Part shown: positions 15,985-53,600 of the stretch, piece by piece
Position numbering within the stretch: position 1 is the first letter of the stretch
How the letters are laid out: each line of letters begins with the position of its first letter
Assembly (NCBI RefSeq): GCF_037042905.1
Contig: NC_087251.1
Coordinates: forward strand, 28,212,001 to 28,276,000
Source of the DNA: Lytechinus pictus
Taxonomy: Eukaryota
DNA: 64,000 nt
Direction: 5' to 3'
Program-made: the position numbers and the translations under genes
The notes under the pieces: generated by a model
Told to the model about the DNA's origin: nothing
Database searches by the model: none
Seen by the model: the letters and a program-made list of their open reading frames with translations, nothing else

Positions 15985-16083
15985 ATAATAATAATAATAA
16001 TATATGTGATTTGTAATGCGCCAAATCCACTCGGCAGAGTGCCCAAGGCGCAGTGAAAGAAGAAAGAAAGAACGAAAGAGAAA
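15985..16083 (-). mobile_element. 5'-truncated 3' tail of an L2-like LINE
   Basis: Near-identical reverse complement of 37130-37223 (CACTGCGCCTTGGGCACTCTGCCGAGTGGATTTGGCGCATTACAAATCAC-(ATT)n). Confidence 0.8.
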
Positions 16084-29389: not shown

Positions 29390-31189
29390 ATGGACATCAC
29401 CTTTTGTCTCTGGTTCTGTTTTCTGCTTTATTTTGGAAGTTGCAATTCTATAAACTTCTGTGAATACTGCGAATGTGATTCATCCGAAATATTTTGCGTT
29501 GAAGTAAACTTTAATGAAGCCTTAAACCATTCTGTTCCAAGTGCAGTCTCCAGTAGCGCGAAATACCTTAATATCGGCCCATCGGACGACACGGTGATAT
29601 TGGCGAATGATACACTGAACGTCTTTCCTGCCTTACACTCTCTTAGGATTCATACATGTCCAGTCGCCTTCGTCGGTCAGTTTGTATTTGAAAAACTTTA
29701 CCATTTATCAGATATTTCTTTGGAAACGAATGGTCTTCATGAAATACCAGGAAGAGCTCTTTCCAAGTTAAGAACCTCACTGCATGAGCTCCAACTTGTA
29801 AATCAACATTTTCGGACCATTCCTTCAGATGCATTTGGAGAATTAAGTAACCTCCGATCATTGACCATTACCTATAACACAAACCACCTGTATATATCAC
29901 CGGGTGCATTCACTGGCCTTGTAAACTTAACAGGCCTTTACTTATCTGCTTGTTATATTGGACAGATCCATAACACAACGTTTTGGGGGTTGACCAAACT
30001 GCAAGAATTGGATCTTAGTTACAATCTTTTAGTAGAAATACCGCCCGCAACACTCACACTAAATTCTCTCTTAAAGTTGGACCTCTCATACAATACTCTC
30101 TTAGTCAATCTGATGGATCTAATAATCTTGAAAAATGCGACCAGACTGCAGGTACTCCAAATGGGATACTGTGCCATCTCTGAAATATCACCAACTGCTG
30201 TTGCTAAACTTAAAGGTTCACCAAGTCTTACTGTCGCGAATTTTGATGGGAACCCGTTTAACTGTACCCTAGATCTTTGTTCCTTTGCAAGTTGGTATGT
30301 AAGTCTTCCAGGGCCCGCTATAACTACAAGAAGTCCTAATTTTATCCCCTTTATCACATTAAGTCCTCCTCCGGGAAAGGGTCCATATCAGTGTGAAAGC
30401 AATGGGCAGTCTCTACAGGAGTTCTTCGGTGAATCATGTTTACCCGATCCCGGGCCGTCCACTCTTCCTCCTAACGAAATGCAGTTGCATCTCGTGATAC
30501 TTTCCGTTGCTATTATTATAGTCTTGTTCGTCGTCATCCTTGTGTCATTTGTTGTATGGAAATTCAGGTTGATAAACATTTATCATCGCCGCCTAGGAAA
30601 TGCCTTTCAGCGCCAGGCCAATTACGGAGCAGTTGAAGATGTTGACCGTGAATATGTCTTTGATGCCTACGTCAGCCACCACGAAGATGATAAACCATTC
30701 GTCGAAGATGAAATGCTCCCTCGCCTCGAAGACGAAAGCGGCTTTGATCTCTGTGTCTCCTTCCGAAATTTCCGTTTGGGTTCCCATCTCCTGGATAACG
30801 TGTCTTCAGCCCAAGATGCCAGTCGGGCCATCATATTCATCATCAACGAACGCTTCATGCGGAATGGGCAATGCAAGCTGGAGTTGGAGATGGCTTCCAC
30901 GAGGATGCTGGAAGACGAAGTGGGTCCTGGAGGGCAGCGTATCATCCTTATCATGATGGAAGTCATTGCCCCCGAATTAGTGAATAACACTTTGCGGATG
31001 CTTCTGAACCATGTTGCGTACCTTGAGTGGGATCATGTGGCCGAGGACAGGTGCTGGGGACAGCTCATTGCGACCCTTCATGCCTTAGTGCCGGATAGAA
31101 ACGAGGAGAATGGTGAGGGTGTCGACCAAGGCCGTGATGACGAAATTGAAATGGTCGAAAACGAACATGATGAAAATCGAATTGTGTGA
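29390..31189 (+). CDS. TLR: Short-ectodomain Toll-like receptor (LRR-TM-TIR), single coding exon, 599 aa
   Basis: The 603-aa ORF begins at TTG 29378; its first in-frame ATG (29390, context ACCATGG) starts a signal peptide MDITFCLWFCFLLYFGSCNS. Then LRRNT (CEYCEC...C), about 9-10 LxxLxLxxN/C repeats (e.g. LQELDLSYNLL, LLKLDLSYNT), LRRCT (NPFNC...C...C), TM (LVILSVAIIIVLFVVILVSFVVW), TIR box 1 (YVFDAYVSH), ASRAIIFII..F...C.LE and YLEW...CW. Confidence 0.96.
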   Translation: MDITFCLWFCFLLYFGSCNSINFCEYCECDSSEIFCVEVNFNEALNHSVPSAVSSSAKYLNIGPSDDTVILANDTLNVFPALHSLRIHTCPVAFVGQFVFEKLYHLSDISLETNGLHEIPGRALSKLRTSLHELQLVNQHFRTIPSDAFGELSNLRSLTITYNTNHLYISPGAFTGLVNLTGLYLSACYIGQIHNTTFWGLTKLQELDLSYNLLVEIPPATLTLNSLLKLDLSYNTLLVNLMDLIILKNATRLQVLQMGYCAISEISPTAVAKLKGSPSLTVANFDGNPFNCTLDLCSFASWYVSLPGPAITTRSPNFIPFITLSPPPGKGPYQCESNGQSLQEFFGESCLPDPGPSTLPPNEMQLHLVILSVAIIIVLFVVILVSFVVWKFRLINIYHRRLGNAFQRQANYGAVEDVDREYVFDAYVSHHEDDKPFVEDEMLPRLEDESGFDLCVSFRNFRLGSHLLDNVSSAQDASRAIIFIINERFMRNGQCKLELEMASTRMLEDEVGPGGQRIILIMMEVIAPELVNNTLRMLLNHVAYLEWDHVAEDRCWGQLIATLHALVPDRNEENGEGVDQGRDDEIEMVENEHDENRIV

Positions 31190-31791: not shown

Positions 31792-34369
31792 CATGGGTGT
31801 CGATCACGGGGGGGGTGGGGGGGATATATCCCCCCCAATATTTCAAGTGGGGGGGATGGCCTGTATTATCATCCCCCCCCCAATAATTCAGGGTAGAAAA
31901 ATTGTAATAATGATGATGAAAAAATGAAAAGTTTGATAATGATGATTATATAGTGATGATTATAGTATGCCATCAATCAGTTTGTTTCCCCCGCAATTTG
32001 TGTATATTGTTATTAAATAAAAAAACATTCTTTTCCAGGGCTTTTAAACAGATGGGTGGAGGTTCAAGATGAAAAAGAATGAAATTATGAATGAAAGTTT
32101 ATGTACCGGTATATGATATTTTTTTAAACACATGACATAAAAGGACCCCGCCGAAAAAAAACTTTTGTTGATAGGGTGTTCCATCCCACCAGTGGTGAAT
32201 AAATTAATTTTAAGAAATCAATTGATTAAAAAGGGTGGAAAAATAAAAGGGTGGCAAGATAAACAGGGAAACCTCCATGGACGTAAATCCTAGAGGGGTA
32301 GATCTTGAAAAAGTACAACAAAAACAACTTTTCTCAGATTTACCCCTCCCCACATGCAAGTGCATGATGTTTGTCCCATTTAATCTACAACCCTTTTGAA
32401 TATTAAACATTTTATCATGTGACCCCATCAGATACCTCTCATGAAAATATTGAGGTTCAGTGAGCTCAATATAATATGATCATATTTTTACATTTTTTTA
32501 ATAAGTGAAATCAATTAATGGTTTCAGAAAGAATAATCATTCATTTCTCTCTAAAGCGTATCTTCGGATATGAACATCGGAGGGTTTTTTTCCCCATGTT
32601 ATTCTTGTAATTGTTATGGACTTGAATAACTAAACTTGGTTGATTTTTTCTTATTTTGGCAAAAAAAAAATCTTTTTTGAGTTTGGAAAGGGATGACAGT
32701 TTTGCATTCTATATGAGCACACTCATGCGGTATGTTAATTTCATTTTAACACATATATTAGCTGATATTACACACTGATGATTCAAGAAGATGTTGGAGA
32801 AATATCATAACATGACAGTTGAGTTTTGATTGTTTTTATGTTTGTTTTGTTTCATGCACTTATAAAATATTTAAAACGTGTTAAAATCCAGGGTAAAAAT
32901 CGTCTGACGGTAAGCCCGATGGCGCACGAGAAGCCACACAGTTTGTAATTTGTGCTAGTCTTAATTTGTCCGAATCTGCATTTTATCATCACGCATTAAG
33001 AAGAAAAAAAATATTGCCAGTCGGGTTAGATTTAAGAGAGAAGTTGTTTACATCATGCTCAATAAACAGATCACTTTGTACATGGTCCAGACAATTTTTG
33101 TCATTTTTTCTTTCGTATGAGTTTAGAATAGGCTCACTCAGTGGGGTAACTACGGGGGGGGGGGGCATGAGGGGCACATGCCCATCCAAAAATGAGGAAA
33201 AGGAGAAAAAGAGGGAGAGAGGAAAGGAATGTAATGGGAAAGAAGAAATTATTGTTCATTATGATGTTAGATTATACTATAATTCTGTTATACTACATAA
33301 GACGCATTTTTCATAACTTTATGAATCATAATTTGATTAGGGCCCATGTCTTCATTGTTCCTGGTGCTCACATTGTCTGTTTAACTTTAACGAGATATAT
33401 AATCCTGTGGGACTAAAAGCTTCTGTTTTCAATATACTTCCTCGCACTTCGAATTACTATTTTATGTGCAATAGTATGCTTCTTTTAATGACTACTTAAA
33501 GTGATTGCCACAGTTTAAGGTCTTAATATAAAACATTTCTTGTCCGTGCTTATGTTCGCATTAGTGAGATATGTCTGCTCTCCATGAATTCCTAGAATCA
33601 GTCCTTAAAATGTCCCTTTTTCTGATCTCAATATCAAAACTTTTCAGATCGCGCTTCGCGCTCGCATCATTTGGTTAATGAAATACGTATGGTCTTAGTG
33701 AATTCCTACAAACAAGCTTTAGAATGCCCCTTTTCAGGTCTGAATTTCTAAATTTTCAGCTCGCGCTTCGCGCTCGCAATATTTGATTATTGAGATGCGT
33801 ATGTTAATAATCATGATTACAATGACTTCAAGTGCTTCATGTGTAATTCTAACAAAATCAGCAAGCGCTTAGCACTCGCAATAGATGACTGTGGTGAGAT
33901 ATGTAGTGGATTCCTTAAATATAGTCCTTAAAATCTCCCTTTTTGGGGTCAATATATACAAAAATTTCAGCTCGCGCTTCGCGCTCGCATTGTTAAGCGA
34001 GACAGGTAAGTATCATGATTACAAAAAGTTGATTAATGTCCCTTTTTACGTCCGAATATCACAAATTTTAAGCTCGCGCTTCGTGCTCACATTATTTCAT
34101 CAGTGAGATACATATCTGTTTAATATATGGCACTGTCCTTAAAGTGTGTCTATTAGGTCAGTATACCTGGCAACTGACCTAATAAACTAATTGACTCAAA
34201 AATTTTGCTGGTGCCCCCCTATGCCATGACCCACGGTACGCCACTGGGCTTACTTGTAACACAAATTGAATTTTGTGATTTTAGTGGGGGTTATATTGAA
34301 AGATCCCCATCCACAAGAATATTTGTGTCAATCATCCCCCCCAACCAAGAATACCGATCGACACCCATG
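31792..34369. mobile_element. hAT-like non-autonomous element with a perfect 8-bp TSD, containing a nested element
   Basis: TTTGAATG|CATGGGTGTCGATC ... GATCGACACCCATG|TTTGAATG. Confidence 0.85.
33139..34246. mobile_element. Nested hAT-like non-autonomous element
   Basis: GGCTCACT|CAGTGGGGTA ... TACGCCACTG|GGCTTACT (8-bp TSD, 1 mismatch); internal repeated GCTCGCGCTTCGCGCTCGCA motifs. Confidence 0.8.
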
Positions 34370-34669: not shown

Positions 34670-37223
34670 TAGTTGTCTAAACTCCAAAAGCTCCAGAACG
34701 CTGCAGCACGTTTGGTCACCCTATCTAAAAAGTATGTTCACATCACACCCATTCTAAAAAATATCTTCATTGGTTAAAGGTCAACGATCGCATCATCTTC
34801 AAAATCCTTCTCCTTGTTTTCCACGCAATTAATGGCTCTGCTCCACAGTACAATATTAATCTAATCAGCAAATACAGCCCGGTCACACGTTCATCCAACT
34901 CTGGTTCCCTAGTTATTCCTAAATCCGTTAAAGTAGAACTATATTGAAAATCGTAAAAATGGGGAATCATATATCAAATTAAAGGAGAAAATAAGGAGAA
35001 CACGATGGTGTAAATCATTTATCATGGAGACCGATGGAACTCAGTTAATTGATAGTTTAAAGTTCTCTCTCTGAATGCTTCAAACACGCAGAATTACGTC
35101 CGCGAAATTGGGGATTTTTTATGACGTCACTTTCTGTACGAGAGGCGTGATTGGCTCTCCAACGTGAAGCTCCACTTGCATGCAAAACCTGTTGCGAGGG
35201 TACGTTTTCTCCACATTGTCACTGAATACTTTGAGCCCGAAATGAAAGAAAACCCAGAATTTTATCTAGATTTGGATTTTCAAATTGATGATTATGAATT
35301 AAGATGAAGAGAATGATGATGAAGTTTCTAGCTCTAGAAAAACAAAGTGACGTGGATAGAGGTATACATTAGGGGAATTACGCCGGTGATTATGAGTCGG
35401 ACAATTCAACTTGCATATGCCGATTCGCTACCAACACATGCAGCTGATAGCTGCTCCGCGGGTCAAATCCATGAAAATGAATTCCATCACGACCACATCC
35501 AGACAGAGTCTCTTTCTTCTATCAACAACATAATGAGAATGAAAATAATGATATAACTGTACTTACAAACAAGTGAATATATCCGAACCTAGGCTGAAGG
35601 TAAATCAACTCAAGGAATAACAGCAGACGATATGCACCGACGATGAATTTCACGTGGCTGGGAGATTGTCACTCGTTCTGTTAGATAAAATTTCTATCTA
35701 ATTATTTTGACTAAATTACGAAACTCGGAGAATTAGTATTCTACATAAAAATTAAGTAACACCTGGTACTATTTTTTGAATTACGATAAAACCTTTTTGA
35801 AGCAAAGAAAATGAGGTAAATTAAAATTAGATATAAAAGATCATCCGCCTAGCTCGCATTCGATTGTAAACAATCAGCAAGGCGAGCACATAGAGTTGGA
35901 TAAAGCTACGCTCCAACTCTATGGGCGAGCAAGCCACTGAACTGAAAATACGTATTTTCAGTTCAGTGGAGCAAGCTGGCCATGTGCTTTTGATTGTTTG
36001 TTTACAATCGCATGCGGCTAAGTGGATGATCCTTTATATCTTATTTTAATTTACCTCAATTTCTTTGCTTCAAAAATATTTTATCGTAATTCAAAAAATA
36101 GTACCAGGTGTTACTTAATTTTTATGTAGAATACTAATTCTCCGAATTTCGTAATTTAGTCAAAATAATGAGATATAAATTTTATCTAACAGAACGAGTG
36201 AACATCTATTCCAGCCACGTGAAATTCATCGTCGGTGCATATCGTCTGCTTCTATTCCTTGAGTTGATTTACCTTCAGCCTAGGTTCGGATATATTCACT
36301 TATTTGTAAGTACAGTTATTTTATTATTTTCCTTCTCATTATGTTGTTGATAGAGGAAAGAGACTCTGTCTGGATGTGGTCATGCTGCATGGAATTCATT
36401 TTCATGGATTTGACCCGCGGTCCCGCGGTGCAGCTAGCATGCAGCTGCATACGTACGTTGGTAGCGAATCGGCTTGCAAGTTGAATTGTCTTACTCATCA
36501 TCACCGGCGTAATTCCCTTAATTTACCACCATCCACGTCACTTTGTTTTTCTAGAATTAGAAACTTTATCATCATTCTCTTCATCTTCATAATCATCAAT
36601 TTGAAAATCCAAATCTAGATAAATTTCTGGGTTTTCTTTCATTTCATGATCGAAGTATTGGGAGTATTCAGTGTCAGTGTGGAGAAAACGTACCCTCGCA
36701 ACAGGTTTTGCATGCAAGTGGAGCTTGACGTGGGAGAGCCAATCACGCCTCTCGTACAGACAGTGACGTCATCAAATTCGAGTCAATTCAGAGACCGATG
36801 CGAGGCATATTTCGGAGAGGCATTTTAGCGCTTTTTAATCGGCGATTTCCACCTTATGTATTATTTTCGTTATTTTTTAATGACCTAATGGTAATCCACA
36901 CATCATTACCTTTCCACTGATATATAATAAGGCCATATTCATAATCAATATATTTCTCCTTTAAGACATGAGGGGTTCGGGCTTTTGCTCACGCTGGCCC
37001 TATTCTCTGGAATGATCTTCCCCTGACAATCCGTGAATGCACGTCCATTGACACATACCTTAAGACTCGTCTATTCAATGCCTCTTACTCTTAATTGTTC
37101 CTGAATCTATTACCATTGTATTTGTACTTTTTCTCTTTCGTTCTTTCTCTCTTCTTTCACTGCGCCTTGGGCACTCTGCCGAGTGGATTTGGCGCATTAC
37201 AAATCACATATATTATTATTATT
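34670..37223 (+). mobile_element. L2/CR1-group LINE 3' fragment, split by a DNA transposon
   Basis: LQNAAARLVTLSKKYVHITPIL..LHWLKVNDRIIFKILLLVF before the insertion and KT*GVRAFAHAGPILWNDLP after it; ends in a stem-loop and an (ATT)n tail. Confidence 0.85.
34932..36960. mobile_element. TTAA-targeting, AG-terminal (Kolobok-like) non-autonomous foldback element
   Basis: TTAA|AGTAGAACTATATTGA ... TCAATATATTTCTCCT|TTAA (TIR 14/16). It interrupts the LINE cleanly. Internal arms ~35120-35880 and ~35990-36772 are inverted copies. Confidence 0.85.
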
Positions 37224-38027
37224 AGAAATCTGATGTTTATTCTTCCCCTAATGATCTTAGATAGACTACACAAATAAATTAGCAATGGAAATTGATAACT
37301 TTGCCGAGTCTCGGTTTTCATAAAATTTTGAATCTGTATTATTTGCAGAATGATCTGATGATTGTAGCGTTAAGACTCTACTATAATTTAATGATGATAA
37401 TCAGGGATATGTGAAGGGAGATAATTTATGACAAAACTAATGACGTGATGCTCTCTATGTTTATTCTTAATACTCTCAGAAATTGTTTTAATCAACCCAA
37501 AAGTTGGTTAAAGTATCAAACGATCAACTGTTTTTTTCAATAATTCCAATTCATTATGGGATGCGATTTTGTTTTAACCAACCGTTGGTAGGTTCAATGA
37601 GAGGTTGGACAAAACATTTCTGACTGTACTTTTAAATTTGTCCCTCTCCCTCCCTCCCCTCAGTCACTCTCACTCTCTCCCTCCCTTCACATACACACAC
37701 ACCCACACGCATTCTTTCTCCTCTCTCTTCTTCTCGCCCTCTCCCTCCACACACACACACACACTTTCTGTATCCCCTCTCCCTCTCCCTATCCAGGTCC
37801 TGCTCTCTCTCTCTCTCATTTCACTTGCTATCTCACTCACACATCCCACACACCCACATAACACTCACTTTCAATATTTTCTCAAGTCCTTTTTTTTATC
37901 TGTCCTTTCCCCCTTTCCTGTATGAATAAAAGTGGAAACAGGAAAATCGAGCTAAGTAAATTCCACAGCGGAAATAGGGATAGTTGTATTGTAAAGGAAA
38001 ATGTGGTATTCTGATAGCCAAGGTTAA

Positions 38028-50600: not shown

Positions 50601-53600
50601 AACGCCGTTCTCTACATACGATTCCACTACTACAGAGTCGTTGCTTCCTTGTTCTGATGATATTGTATCTGGACAGGCTCCGTCACCATTTTGAGGGGTA
50701 CACTGTAAAAAAAAGTGAAAATTCGTTTTCGTCAATCACCCTATCTGGTGGGTGTTTCAAAACGTTGTTTGTAAGTTACGAACAACTTTACGAACGACTG
50801 GTGACCCTTTATTGGGAACTAAATCAAGACCAACCCAAGACAAAATTCCAAATGAATAATGAAAATCTGGTGTGTATCATATACCGTAACAGAAGGATAC
50901 TAGTCGTTCGGAAGTTATGAAAAGCTTTATGAAATACTCACCTGCAAGGAATTATGAATGTCACTCCATGGGCCTGTTGCTCTTGCCATTTTTTTCGCCA
51001 GAGGTTTTACCGTGTTATATTGTCAATGGTATAATTTTGTTCCCCTAGGTTTTTGTTTATTTGTCAGAGTTCTTTTTATGGCAAAAGTTTTTATGCAACA
51101 GGCCCCATGACAAAATGAAAACCAATACATAATATGGCGGATATAACACATTTCAGCTCCATTTACATTGTGTTGCTGTTTTTCTATTCTGGGTCATCAA
51201 TGAATTTTAAAATGGACTTATCATCAATTATTATTATTACATTATAATACATGGATGTAGGCCTACATTATAAACCAATAACATTGTGCAAACCCTTCAA
51301 TCTTAGAAAGTCGTCTGAATATTATGCAGCCTGGACTCACTGCCAATAACTTTTGTGAAGAATTTGCCTCTCATTTATAAATGAAACTGCAAATTGCAGT
51401 GCATGTGCTAGTCTTGTGTGAAGACCACCTTGTTGATAGTTTCAATCACGGACACGGACTGTGTCTGCTGACTAAACATAGCGCGAGCTTCTCATGTGAA
51501 TTACGATCGATTTTTCAAATTGTTAAATATCGCAAATAATATTGTCGAGAATGTTGTACCTGGGCCTGGCTTTTCAGATAGTAGTCGACGGCCCGTGGAG
51601 TCTGGTTATCCATGAAAGTCACGACAACATCACCGCCGATCATTTGCGTTCCCGTTGTCGATCCACTGAGACCGAATGCGGCGTAGTCGGTACCATTGAG
51701 ACTGCTCAGTCTGATGATGATATCGCTCCCGTCGATTTTCCAACTCACTTGAAACTTTTCATCGACCAGCGTTTCGCAGTTCGGAAATGTCTGAGATGAA
51801 ACGAGAAATTATGACACCCTGGTAAACACATGGGCCCGTATTCTGAAGTCGAGTTTAAGTTAAACTCAGGTTTAAAGTTGTGGTTTAAGTATGGATGGCC
51901 AATTGTTACATAAATCACTAACAGTAGAGATATCATATTTCAGCTCATTTGGCTCTTAAATCATTCATAATTATCTAGGAAGTATAAAGAGATGATTGTT
52001 TTCACCATCGATGAATCAGGAAAGAGCAGAGTAAACATAGGAAACGTTCAACTTGATAAAAATTTTGATACTTTTGGCTTCCCATACTTAAACCACAATT
52101 TTAAACCTGAGTTTAAGTTAAACCCGACTTCAGAATACGGGCCATCAAATCCCCATGATGAGAGTATGTGGGTGCGCATCTGTGTGTGTGTGTGTGTGTG
52201 TTTGTGCATGGGTGTGTGCGTGTATCTGTGTACTCATCATTATCATTATAGAGACGTCAGTTTATCAAAGTGATACACGCTATTATAAACAGTGTTGTAT
52301 TAAATGTATTATTATTTTCATTGCCACTATTCTCATCATCCAAATCATCATCATCATCATCAACCTAACCACCACCATTAACACCATTGTCATAGTTACC
52401 AGTCTCCTTGGTCCGCTGGTCCCACTGTGAAAAGGTAGTGGAGGCAGGTCATGGTTGTTCGGTATGCTGATATCAACGTGTCCGAAATCTTGGGAGAAAG
52501 CTATGCACCACAAACCAAAATGCCCAATATCGGACACCGTTAACTCATCAGGGAGAGTTAGAACGATCGTTTCCCCACTGTATCTCCTAATAACACCGGT
52601 TCTGTGAATATTTCAAGAATGTTTATAATATCAACAGCATATCCCATCACCAGCCTTAATAAATGAATGTGTACAATTTATGTGTCAATTTGATGCAATG
52701 AGACATTGTATTTCCGAGCATGAATATCAACAGTTTATTTGATTTAATTATTGAAAATAAAGCAACAATATGCAATGCTGACATGAAAATACTACTATGT
52801 TCTAAAAACAATCATTCAAGATAAAGAAATTGGGCCAGAATAGAGGGATTTACGGAATAAAATCGGATTAAAGTGATTTTGATTTTAACTCTCAAAATAT
52901 AGAACACTTTAAACAAAATATTATCATTGTGCATGCGAAATTGTTTTGATTATGCTATTTGGGGTCCAAGAGAAGCGTTTCATTAACGACAAATTTCTTA
53001 CGTTAACTATCTGATAAAAAATATTGTCGGATAAAATGTCTGACAAGTTCTTTCATGAAAAGCTTCCCAGAATAAAGAGTTACTCAAATACAATCAAAAT
53101 GCGGTTAACTCAGCTAATGAACATTAACGTTGGCTCGTATGTGAACAAACCCAGGGCTTTATTATAAAAGTTGTTTAGGGTTATTGTGCATCTCCAAATT
53201 AAAATAAATTCAATTCTTAAACAGCACAATGTACACCATGGCAGAGACCCGGGGCAGAGATAGCCTTGTTTCCTAAATAGAAAAATCTAAGACCGCGTTT
53301 TCACCAGCAAAACTAGCTCTAACTCGTAAAAAAAAATGGAATCAACTAACCCTCCGTTTTCGTCTGGTATTGAACGGTCATTGGCTCCATTGGAAGGAGT
53401 CCCTCCGGGTCCTACCCAAAAATAAGCCCCTAAGTGCGGTAATAAAGAACGAAAATACATAAAATGTATGAAAAATCAAAACGGAGTTAGCAATTTGTGG
53501 AAGTTGAAAATTAAATATGTAGAGCTTAATATCCAGAGATGAGATTTTGAATTCTTACGTGCTGTGCGTACGCCACTGGAACATCTTAATCCATATGCTC

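Follow-up and report, generated by a model that had tools for sequence, protein, structure and literature searches.

Two adjacent short inserts in a Kolobok-like palindromic element are probable excision scars of P-superfamily transposons

Introduction

The P transposase of Drosophila cuts 17 bp within the inverted repeat of its element, and P insertions are flanked by 8-bp duplications of the target site (TSDs) (PMC7776569). With such a staggered cut, 17 nt of the element stay behind as a tail on each side of the donor site. In Table 1 of PMC2895639, the broken donor appears as an 8-bp TSD plus 17 nt on one side and 17 nt plus an 8-bp TSD on the other, and gives repaired junctions from Rad51-mutant flies, with 66 isolates listed. 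By our hand count of that table, 28 of the 66 have intact TSDs with 30 to 37 bp left between them, 19 form a perfect palindrome (30 or 32 bp) on a 2-bp tip, and five are 35 bp long; a 34-bp blunt join of 17+17 nt occurs in none of the 66.

Across the P superfamily, TSDs of 7 to 9 bp are described (PMC3698922, PMC4168063), and the ends of both P and zebrafish Pdre2 begin with CAT (PMC10983969, PMC2895639). Taken alone, CA..TG ends and 8-bp TSDs do not separate P from other superfamilies. hAT elements also make 8-bp TSDs. The signature of Kolobok is a TTAA duplication with RR..YY termini (PMC9587614), and palindromic non-autonomous Kolobok elements are already known (PMC12676858). A partial literature search, with Repbase outside its scope, found no published account of natural P-type footprints in echinoderms. 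Here we describe two inserts of 34 and 35 bp that lie side by side in a palindromic element of Lytechinus pictus and compare them with these systems.

Results

All positions refer to the window, by which we mean the whole 64-kb stretch of DNA that was analysed. A single-exon Toll-like receptor frame of ~600 aa at 29390-31189, with leucine-rich repeats (LRR), a transmembrane stretch and a TIR domain, indicates that the window is animal DNA. Among its other repeats are two inverted copies of a 95-bp sequence (15989-16083 and 37130-37224), whose 99% identity points to a young family, and a small palindromic element at 51833-52143, with 81-bp arms and TTAA-rich borders, that is perhaps another Kolobok-type MITE. 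The word TACATGTA is found five times in the window and one to four times in 10 simulations, a weak excess.

Both inserts lie in a long palindromic host element, and the coordinates of host and inserts are collected in Table 1. In 765 aligned columns, the two arms of the host share 93% identity; its outer ~180 bp are asymmetric except for a 16-bp terminal repeat, and a search inside it for open reading frames of at least 120 aa found none. At both ends the host shows the TTAA duplication and the RR..YY termini of Kolobok, here AG..CT. By its sequence features, we class it as a Kolobok-like, non-autonomous palindromic element. It resembles the non-autonomous Kolobok elements described in PMC9587614 and PMC12676858 in its TTAA, its RR..YY ends, its lack of coding sequence and its palindromic interior, but differs in size, 2 kb against the 496 bp of Kolobok-N2_XT, and has no autonomous partner tied to it.

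Table 1. Positions of the host element, the two inserts and their target duplications
Feature	Positions	Sequence	Description
Left target duplication of host	34928-34931	TTAA	Contigs exit here with varied flanks (X1 and X2 with loose ends at 34928, X12 at 34930)
Host element	34932-36960		2,029 bp; non-coding palindromic DNA transposon; AG..CT ends; Kolobok-like
Central loop of host	35877-35991		Includes both inserts
TSD1, left copy	35881-35888	GGCGAGCA	Exact 8 bp
Insert 1 (putative scar 1)	35889-35923		35 bp; exact 12-bp terminal inverted repeat, 11-nt spacer
TSD1, right copy	35924-35931	GGCGAGCA	5-bp overlap with left copy of TSD2
TSD2, left copy	35927-35934	GAGCAAGC	Exact 8 bp
Insert 2 (putative scar 2)	35935-35968		34-bp perfect palindrome
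TSD2, right copy	35969-35976	GAGCAAGC	Exact 8 bp
Right target duplication of host	36961-36964	TTAA	

The letters and coordinates originally predicted for the two inserts proved exact on re-checking. Each insert is bounded by an intact, exact 8-bp target duplication, and both have CA..TG outer termini in inverted orientation. Insert 1 can be read as 17+1+17 nt or as 18+18 nt with a 1-bp overlap, and its left and right ends are unlike inward of the 12-bp terminal inverted repeat (TIR). Insert 2 can be read as 17+17 nt joined bluntly or as 18+18 nt on a CG tip (2-bp overlap), and depths of 19 to 21 nt fit too; since a blunt join of equal tails always resembles microhomology, it gives no fixed cut depth. 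The fold z-scores of the two inserts are -7.5 and -9.3. Either order of the two insertion events leads to the identical final sequence.

To place these structures against background, we scanned the window for exact 8-bp TSDs enclosing inserts of 20 to 60 bp with exact TIRs of at least 10 bp. The only two matches are the two inserts, and each of 20 Markov simulations gave none. A relaxed scan for CA..TG ends gave five matches in the window, namely the two inserts, two matches in an AT microsatellite and one poly-A/T tract, with 0 to 1 in each of 20 shuffles. The inserts are unrelated to their flanks, no template for either was found in the rest of the window, and a search of the window with the insert termini, allowing up to three mismatches, found no 17-mer match outside the inserts.

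We favour, with good though incomplete confidence, the reading that two different P-superfamily elements, cut 17 to 18 nt inside their ends, left the inserts as scars of end joining. Two unrelated transposons of this superfamily (P/THAP9/Galileo-type) would have landed 3 bp apart in the GC-rich loop of the host, each insertion duplicating 8 bp, and each element would later have been cut out. A P-type transposase would cut one strand at the tip of the element and the second strand ~17 nt inside, so that a long 3' tail derived from the element would remain on both donor flanks; repair of these tails by end joining would leave duplication, left tip, right tip and duplication in that order. On this model, the perfect 34-bp palindrome of insert 2 would derive from a parent with a TIR of at least 17 bp, the looped 35-bp hairpin of insert 1 would derive from a parent whose TIR was 12 bp long and whose subterminal bases were unequal, and both products would be inert. 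A cut depth of 17 to 18 nt would be the simplest for both, with insert 2 compatible with 17 to 21 nt. That two unlike sequences have nearly the same length suggests a common cutting rule.

Three features of P footprints visible in sequence are found at both inserts: the TSDs, ~17 nt per end and CA..TG ends. The likeness to Drosophila P footprints extends to the products themselves, which are palindromic or 35 bp long and have an 8-bp TSD on both sides. Given the lack of 34-bp blunt joins among the 66 fly isolates of Table 1 in PMC2895639, insert 2 would require either a blunt join or tails of at least 18 nt. The locus differs from the fly footprints in that it is natural and fixed in an assembly, has two unrelated end sequences and is known from the putative scars alone. 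Among deuterostomes, Pdre2 of zebrafish is described with a CAT start, a 13-bp TIR and 8-bp TSDs (PMC10983969), close to the 12-bp TIR of insert 1, and short-TIR deuterostome P elements of this kind fit the loop of insert 1. The Pdre2/THAP9 elements covered in PMC10983969 are full or internally deleted elements, in contrast to the presumed scars here. Insert 2 starts with CAC. We take this start to resemble Galileo.

The TSDs would also suit another origin, in which hAT or other elements with 8-bp TSDs were reduced to ~35 bp by internal deletion, through aborted gap repair or hairpin-driven deletion. TSDs of 8 bp are common to hAT MITEs and Ac/Ds footprints, and a nearby element at 31792-34369 has CAT..ATG ends, a 14-bp TIR and an exact 8-bp TSD. 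However, hAT cleavage leaves the flank with the hairpin and sets the element ends free (PMC5499845), and the Ds footprints published in PMC1978519 retain no element sequence; as far as these two sources describe them, hAT footprints are flank-derived and carry no element ends. That two unrelated families should end at 34 and 35 bp, one with a perfect centre, would also be unexpected from random deletion. We regard deletion derivatives as improbable, and the original assignment of the inserts to hAT finds no support, as element ends are kept, both TSDs are whole and the inserts are unrelated to their flanks.

GC content is 75% and 62.5% in the two targets and 37% in the host. Only 4.4% of host 8-mers reach the GC content of the first target, and the loop is one of few GC-rich patches. 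GC-rich targets were first described for P (PMC2577343), whose insertions have nucleotide-level hotspots (PMC2577343) and hop locally (PMC7776569). The targets match the 14-bp fly motif of PMC2577343 at 5 and 4 of 14 positions, the motif being a weak and species-specific preference. The idea that the terminal ATG of the first element restored a good target (PMC2577343) for the second was rejected, as the second target is displaced by 3 bp and has only the 4/14 match.

Without the two inserts and with each duplication counted a single time, the central loop measures 30 bp, and the two targets occupy positions 5 to 15 of it. The inserts had been described as stacked at the palindrome axis; both do lie in the central loop, but near the axis and not exactly on it. 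If two hits on a 1,944-bp element are assumed to be independent and uniform, both fall in its 30-bp loop with p ~0.0002; the case was, however, chosen afterwards, and the two events need not have been independent.

Other marks were seen in the right arm. A GC-rich patch ~450 bp off the axis (36414-36456) holds a bare 8-bp tandem duplication (36414-36429) and several 2- to 4-bp palindromic additions, all missing from the left arm, that look like footprints of other transposons; the duplication suggests that GC-rich spots, and not the apex only, gather transposon marks. At 36660-36668 there is a 9-bp near-duplication, also missing from the left arm, which may be what remains of a 9-bp TSD.

To see how other copies of the host family are built, we turned to contigs of public sequencing runs. 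Twenty-one runs matched, none with half of the words; X7 to X11 and X13 to X21, with small word shares, were left out, and contigs of four runs from four studies (X1, X2, X6 and X12) were compared with 34800-36040 at 85% likeness. The comparison is one of contigs, and the following observations hold among the contig rows listed. Across the left end of the host, summed contig depth in X1 rises from ~4,600 to ~79,000-153,000; together with the varied flanks, this jump at the left TTAA indicates that the host family is very abundant. In X1, X6 and X12, contigs pass from 34931 directly to sequence like that from 36965 onward, with one TTAA and no host. Because the right flank is itself repetitive, these host-free sites may be paralogous. 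The host thus occupies a TTAA within another repeated sequence (34870-34931 and 36965-37000), whose uninterrupted form is present in contigs of three of the four runs.

The centre of the palindrome varies. Depth drops ~100-fold in X1 and ~65-fold in X6 at 35850, and loose ends lie at 35846, which implies that the centre differs in most family copies. In one X12 contig, 35886 is joined to 35983 by 11 other letters, exactly the length predicted for an insertion-free centre and identical at 6 of 11 positions. Some family copy with neither insert therefore exists, although it is probably a paralogue and not this locus. The insertion-free centre that the original prediction had proposed to look for is thus present, and the view of the inserts as collapsed, transposon-derived insertions in an older palindromic host is also supported. 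The same prediction had the apex hit repeatedly, so as to form an insertion array; this was seen in one copy only, and no other TSD-flanked insert at the family centre was found among the contig rows listed for the four runs.

The contigs also bear on whether the inserts could be local hairpins, made by fold-back synthesis or by repair of a break at the host cruciform, or an artefact of assembly at the palindrome centre. In favour of this, the inserts sit in the loop of a 2-kb palindrome, and the whole stretch is spanned by none of the contigs listed. Yet in both X1 and X2, which come from different studies and carry different organism labels, a single contig enters insert 2 from the right arm; that of X2 covers 39 of 42 positions of the insert 2 bin. 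A further contig of X12, with a depth of 2.6, runs through both inserts from 35818 to 35963; it has one other letter and nine gap letters, and is ~8 letters shorter within 35892-35933, as gauged from bin depth alone. These contigs speak against the assembly artefact that had been raised as a concern, with the caveat that one of the compared runs could be the assembly's own source. Local synthesis is further opposed by the exact 8-bp duplications on both inserts and by the lack of a template elsewhere in the window. Hairpin and artefact origins are largely refuted, and we give them very little credence.

Insert 2-like sequence is not confined to this locus. Its bin is ~22 times (X1) and ~15 times (X6) as deep as the single contig at the right end of the stretch, and two X6 contigs connect it to different flanks, which together indicate that such sequence is present elsewhere. 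The insert 1 bin stands at 0 in X1 and X2, 37.6 in X6 and 2.1 in X12. Recurrence of insert 2 is predicted alike by repeated excision of one family and by a tiny mobile family. In the latter case, the 34- and 35-mers would be ultra-minimal, TIR-only transposons mobilised in trans with 8-bp duplications, possibly remobilised scars, and their intact ends and exact TSDs agree with this, as does the recurrence. However, the internal 10-bp sites to which P transposase binds lie beyond the terminal repeat (PMC7776569), and 34 to 35 bp leave no room for them; two 17-nt cuts would use up the entire element; and the length equals the sum of two P donor tails. No listed contig of X1 or X2 covers 35892-35933, a gap to which we give no weight. 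The need for internal binding sites makes a tiny mobile family less likely, and the ultra-minimal transposons that the original prediction offered as one option are unlikely with no subterminal sites left in them.

If the inserts are instead excision scars, their parents should share the ends. In the 64-kb window, we found no parent element with the ends of either insert. The nearby element at 31792-34369, already mentioned, is a 2,578-bp non-coding element with unequal subterminal sequence and could be P or hAT. Its anatomy is that expected of a parent of insert 1, but its ends differ; it appears to contain a nested element that ends near 34230 and has repeated subterminal motifs at 33600-34124. 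Scanning metagenome contigs for the insert 1 ends separated by a 2- to 30-nt gap gave two loci, of 35 bp (L002:1501-1535) and 41 bp (L001:262-302). Both have the same 12-bp inverted pair but lie in unrelated context and have no TSD, and they were rejected as relatives of insert 1, being probably chance or protein-binding palindromes. The 17-mer of insert 2 had no match in viral contigs.

Discussion

The class of excision scar to which we provisionally assign these inserts is known from Drosophila P; here it would occur in natural animal DNA. A bolder reading goes further, with the central loops of this very abundant palindromic family as a preferred, structure-directed landing site for P-like transposases that stacks their scars, and with the recurrent 34-bp scar now itself mobile, among the shortest transposing units. 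We hold this to be unlikely, and stacking at a palindrome loop would matter only if further copies show it too.

The long staggered cut has been described as an unusual trait of the Drosophila P transposase. If the two inserts are scars, then the cuts of P-like transposases in a distant animal reach a similar depth. There is also a warning here for annotation, in that 34-mers of this kind should not be named new mini-transposons. As scars, each would instead preserve the ends and the cut depth of a departed element, from which past excisions may be counted and the parents found.
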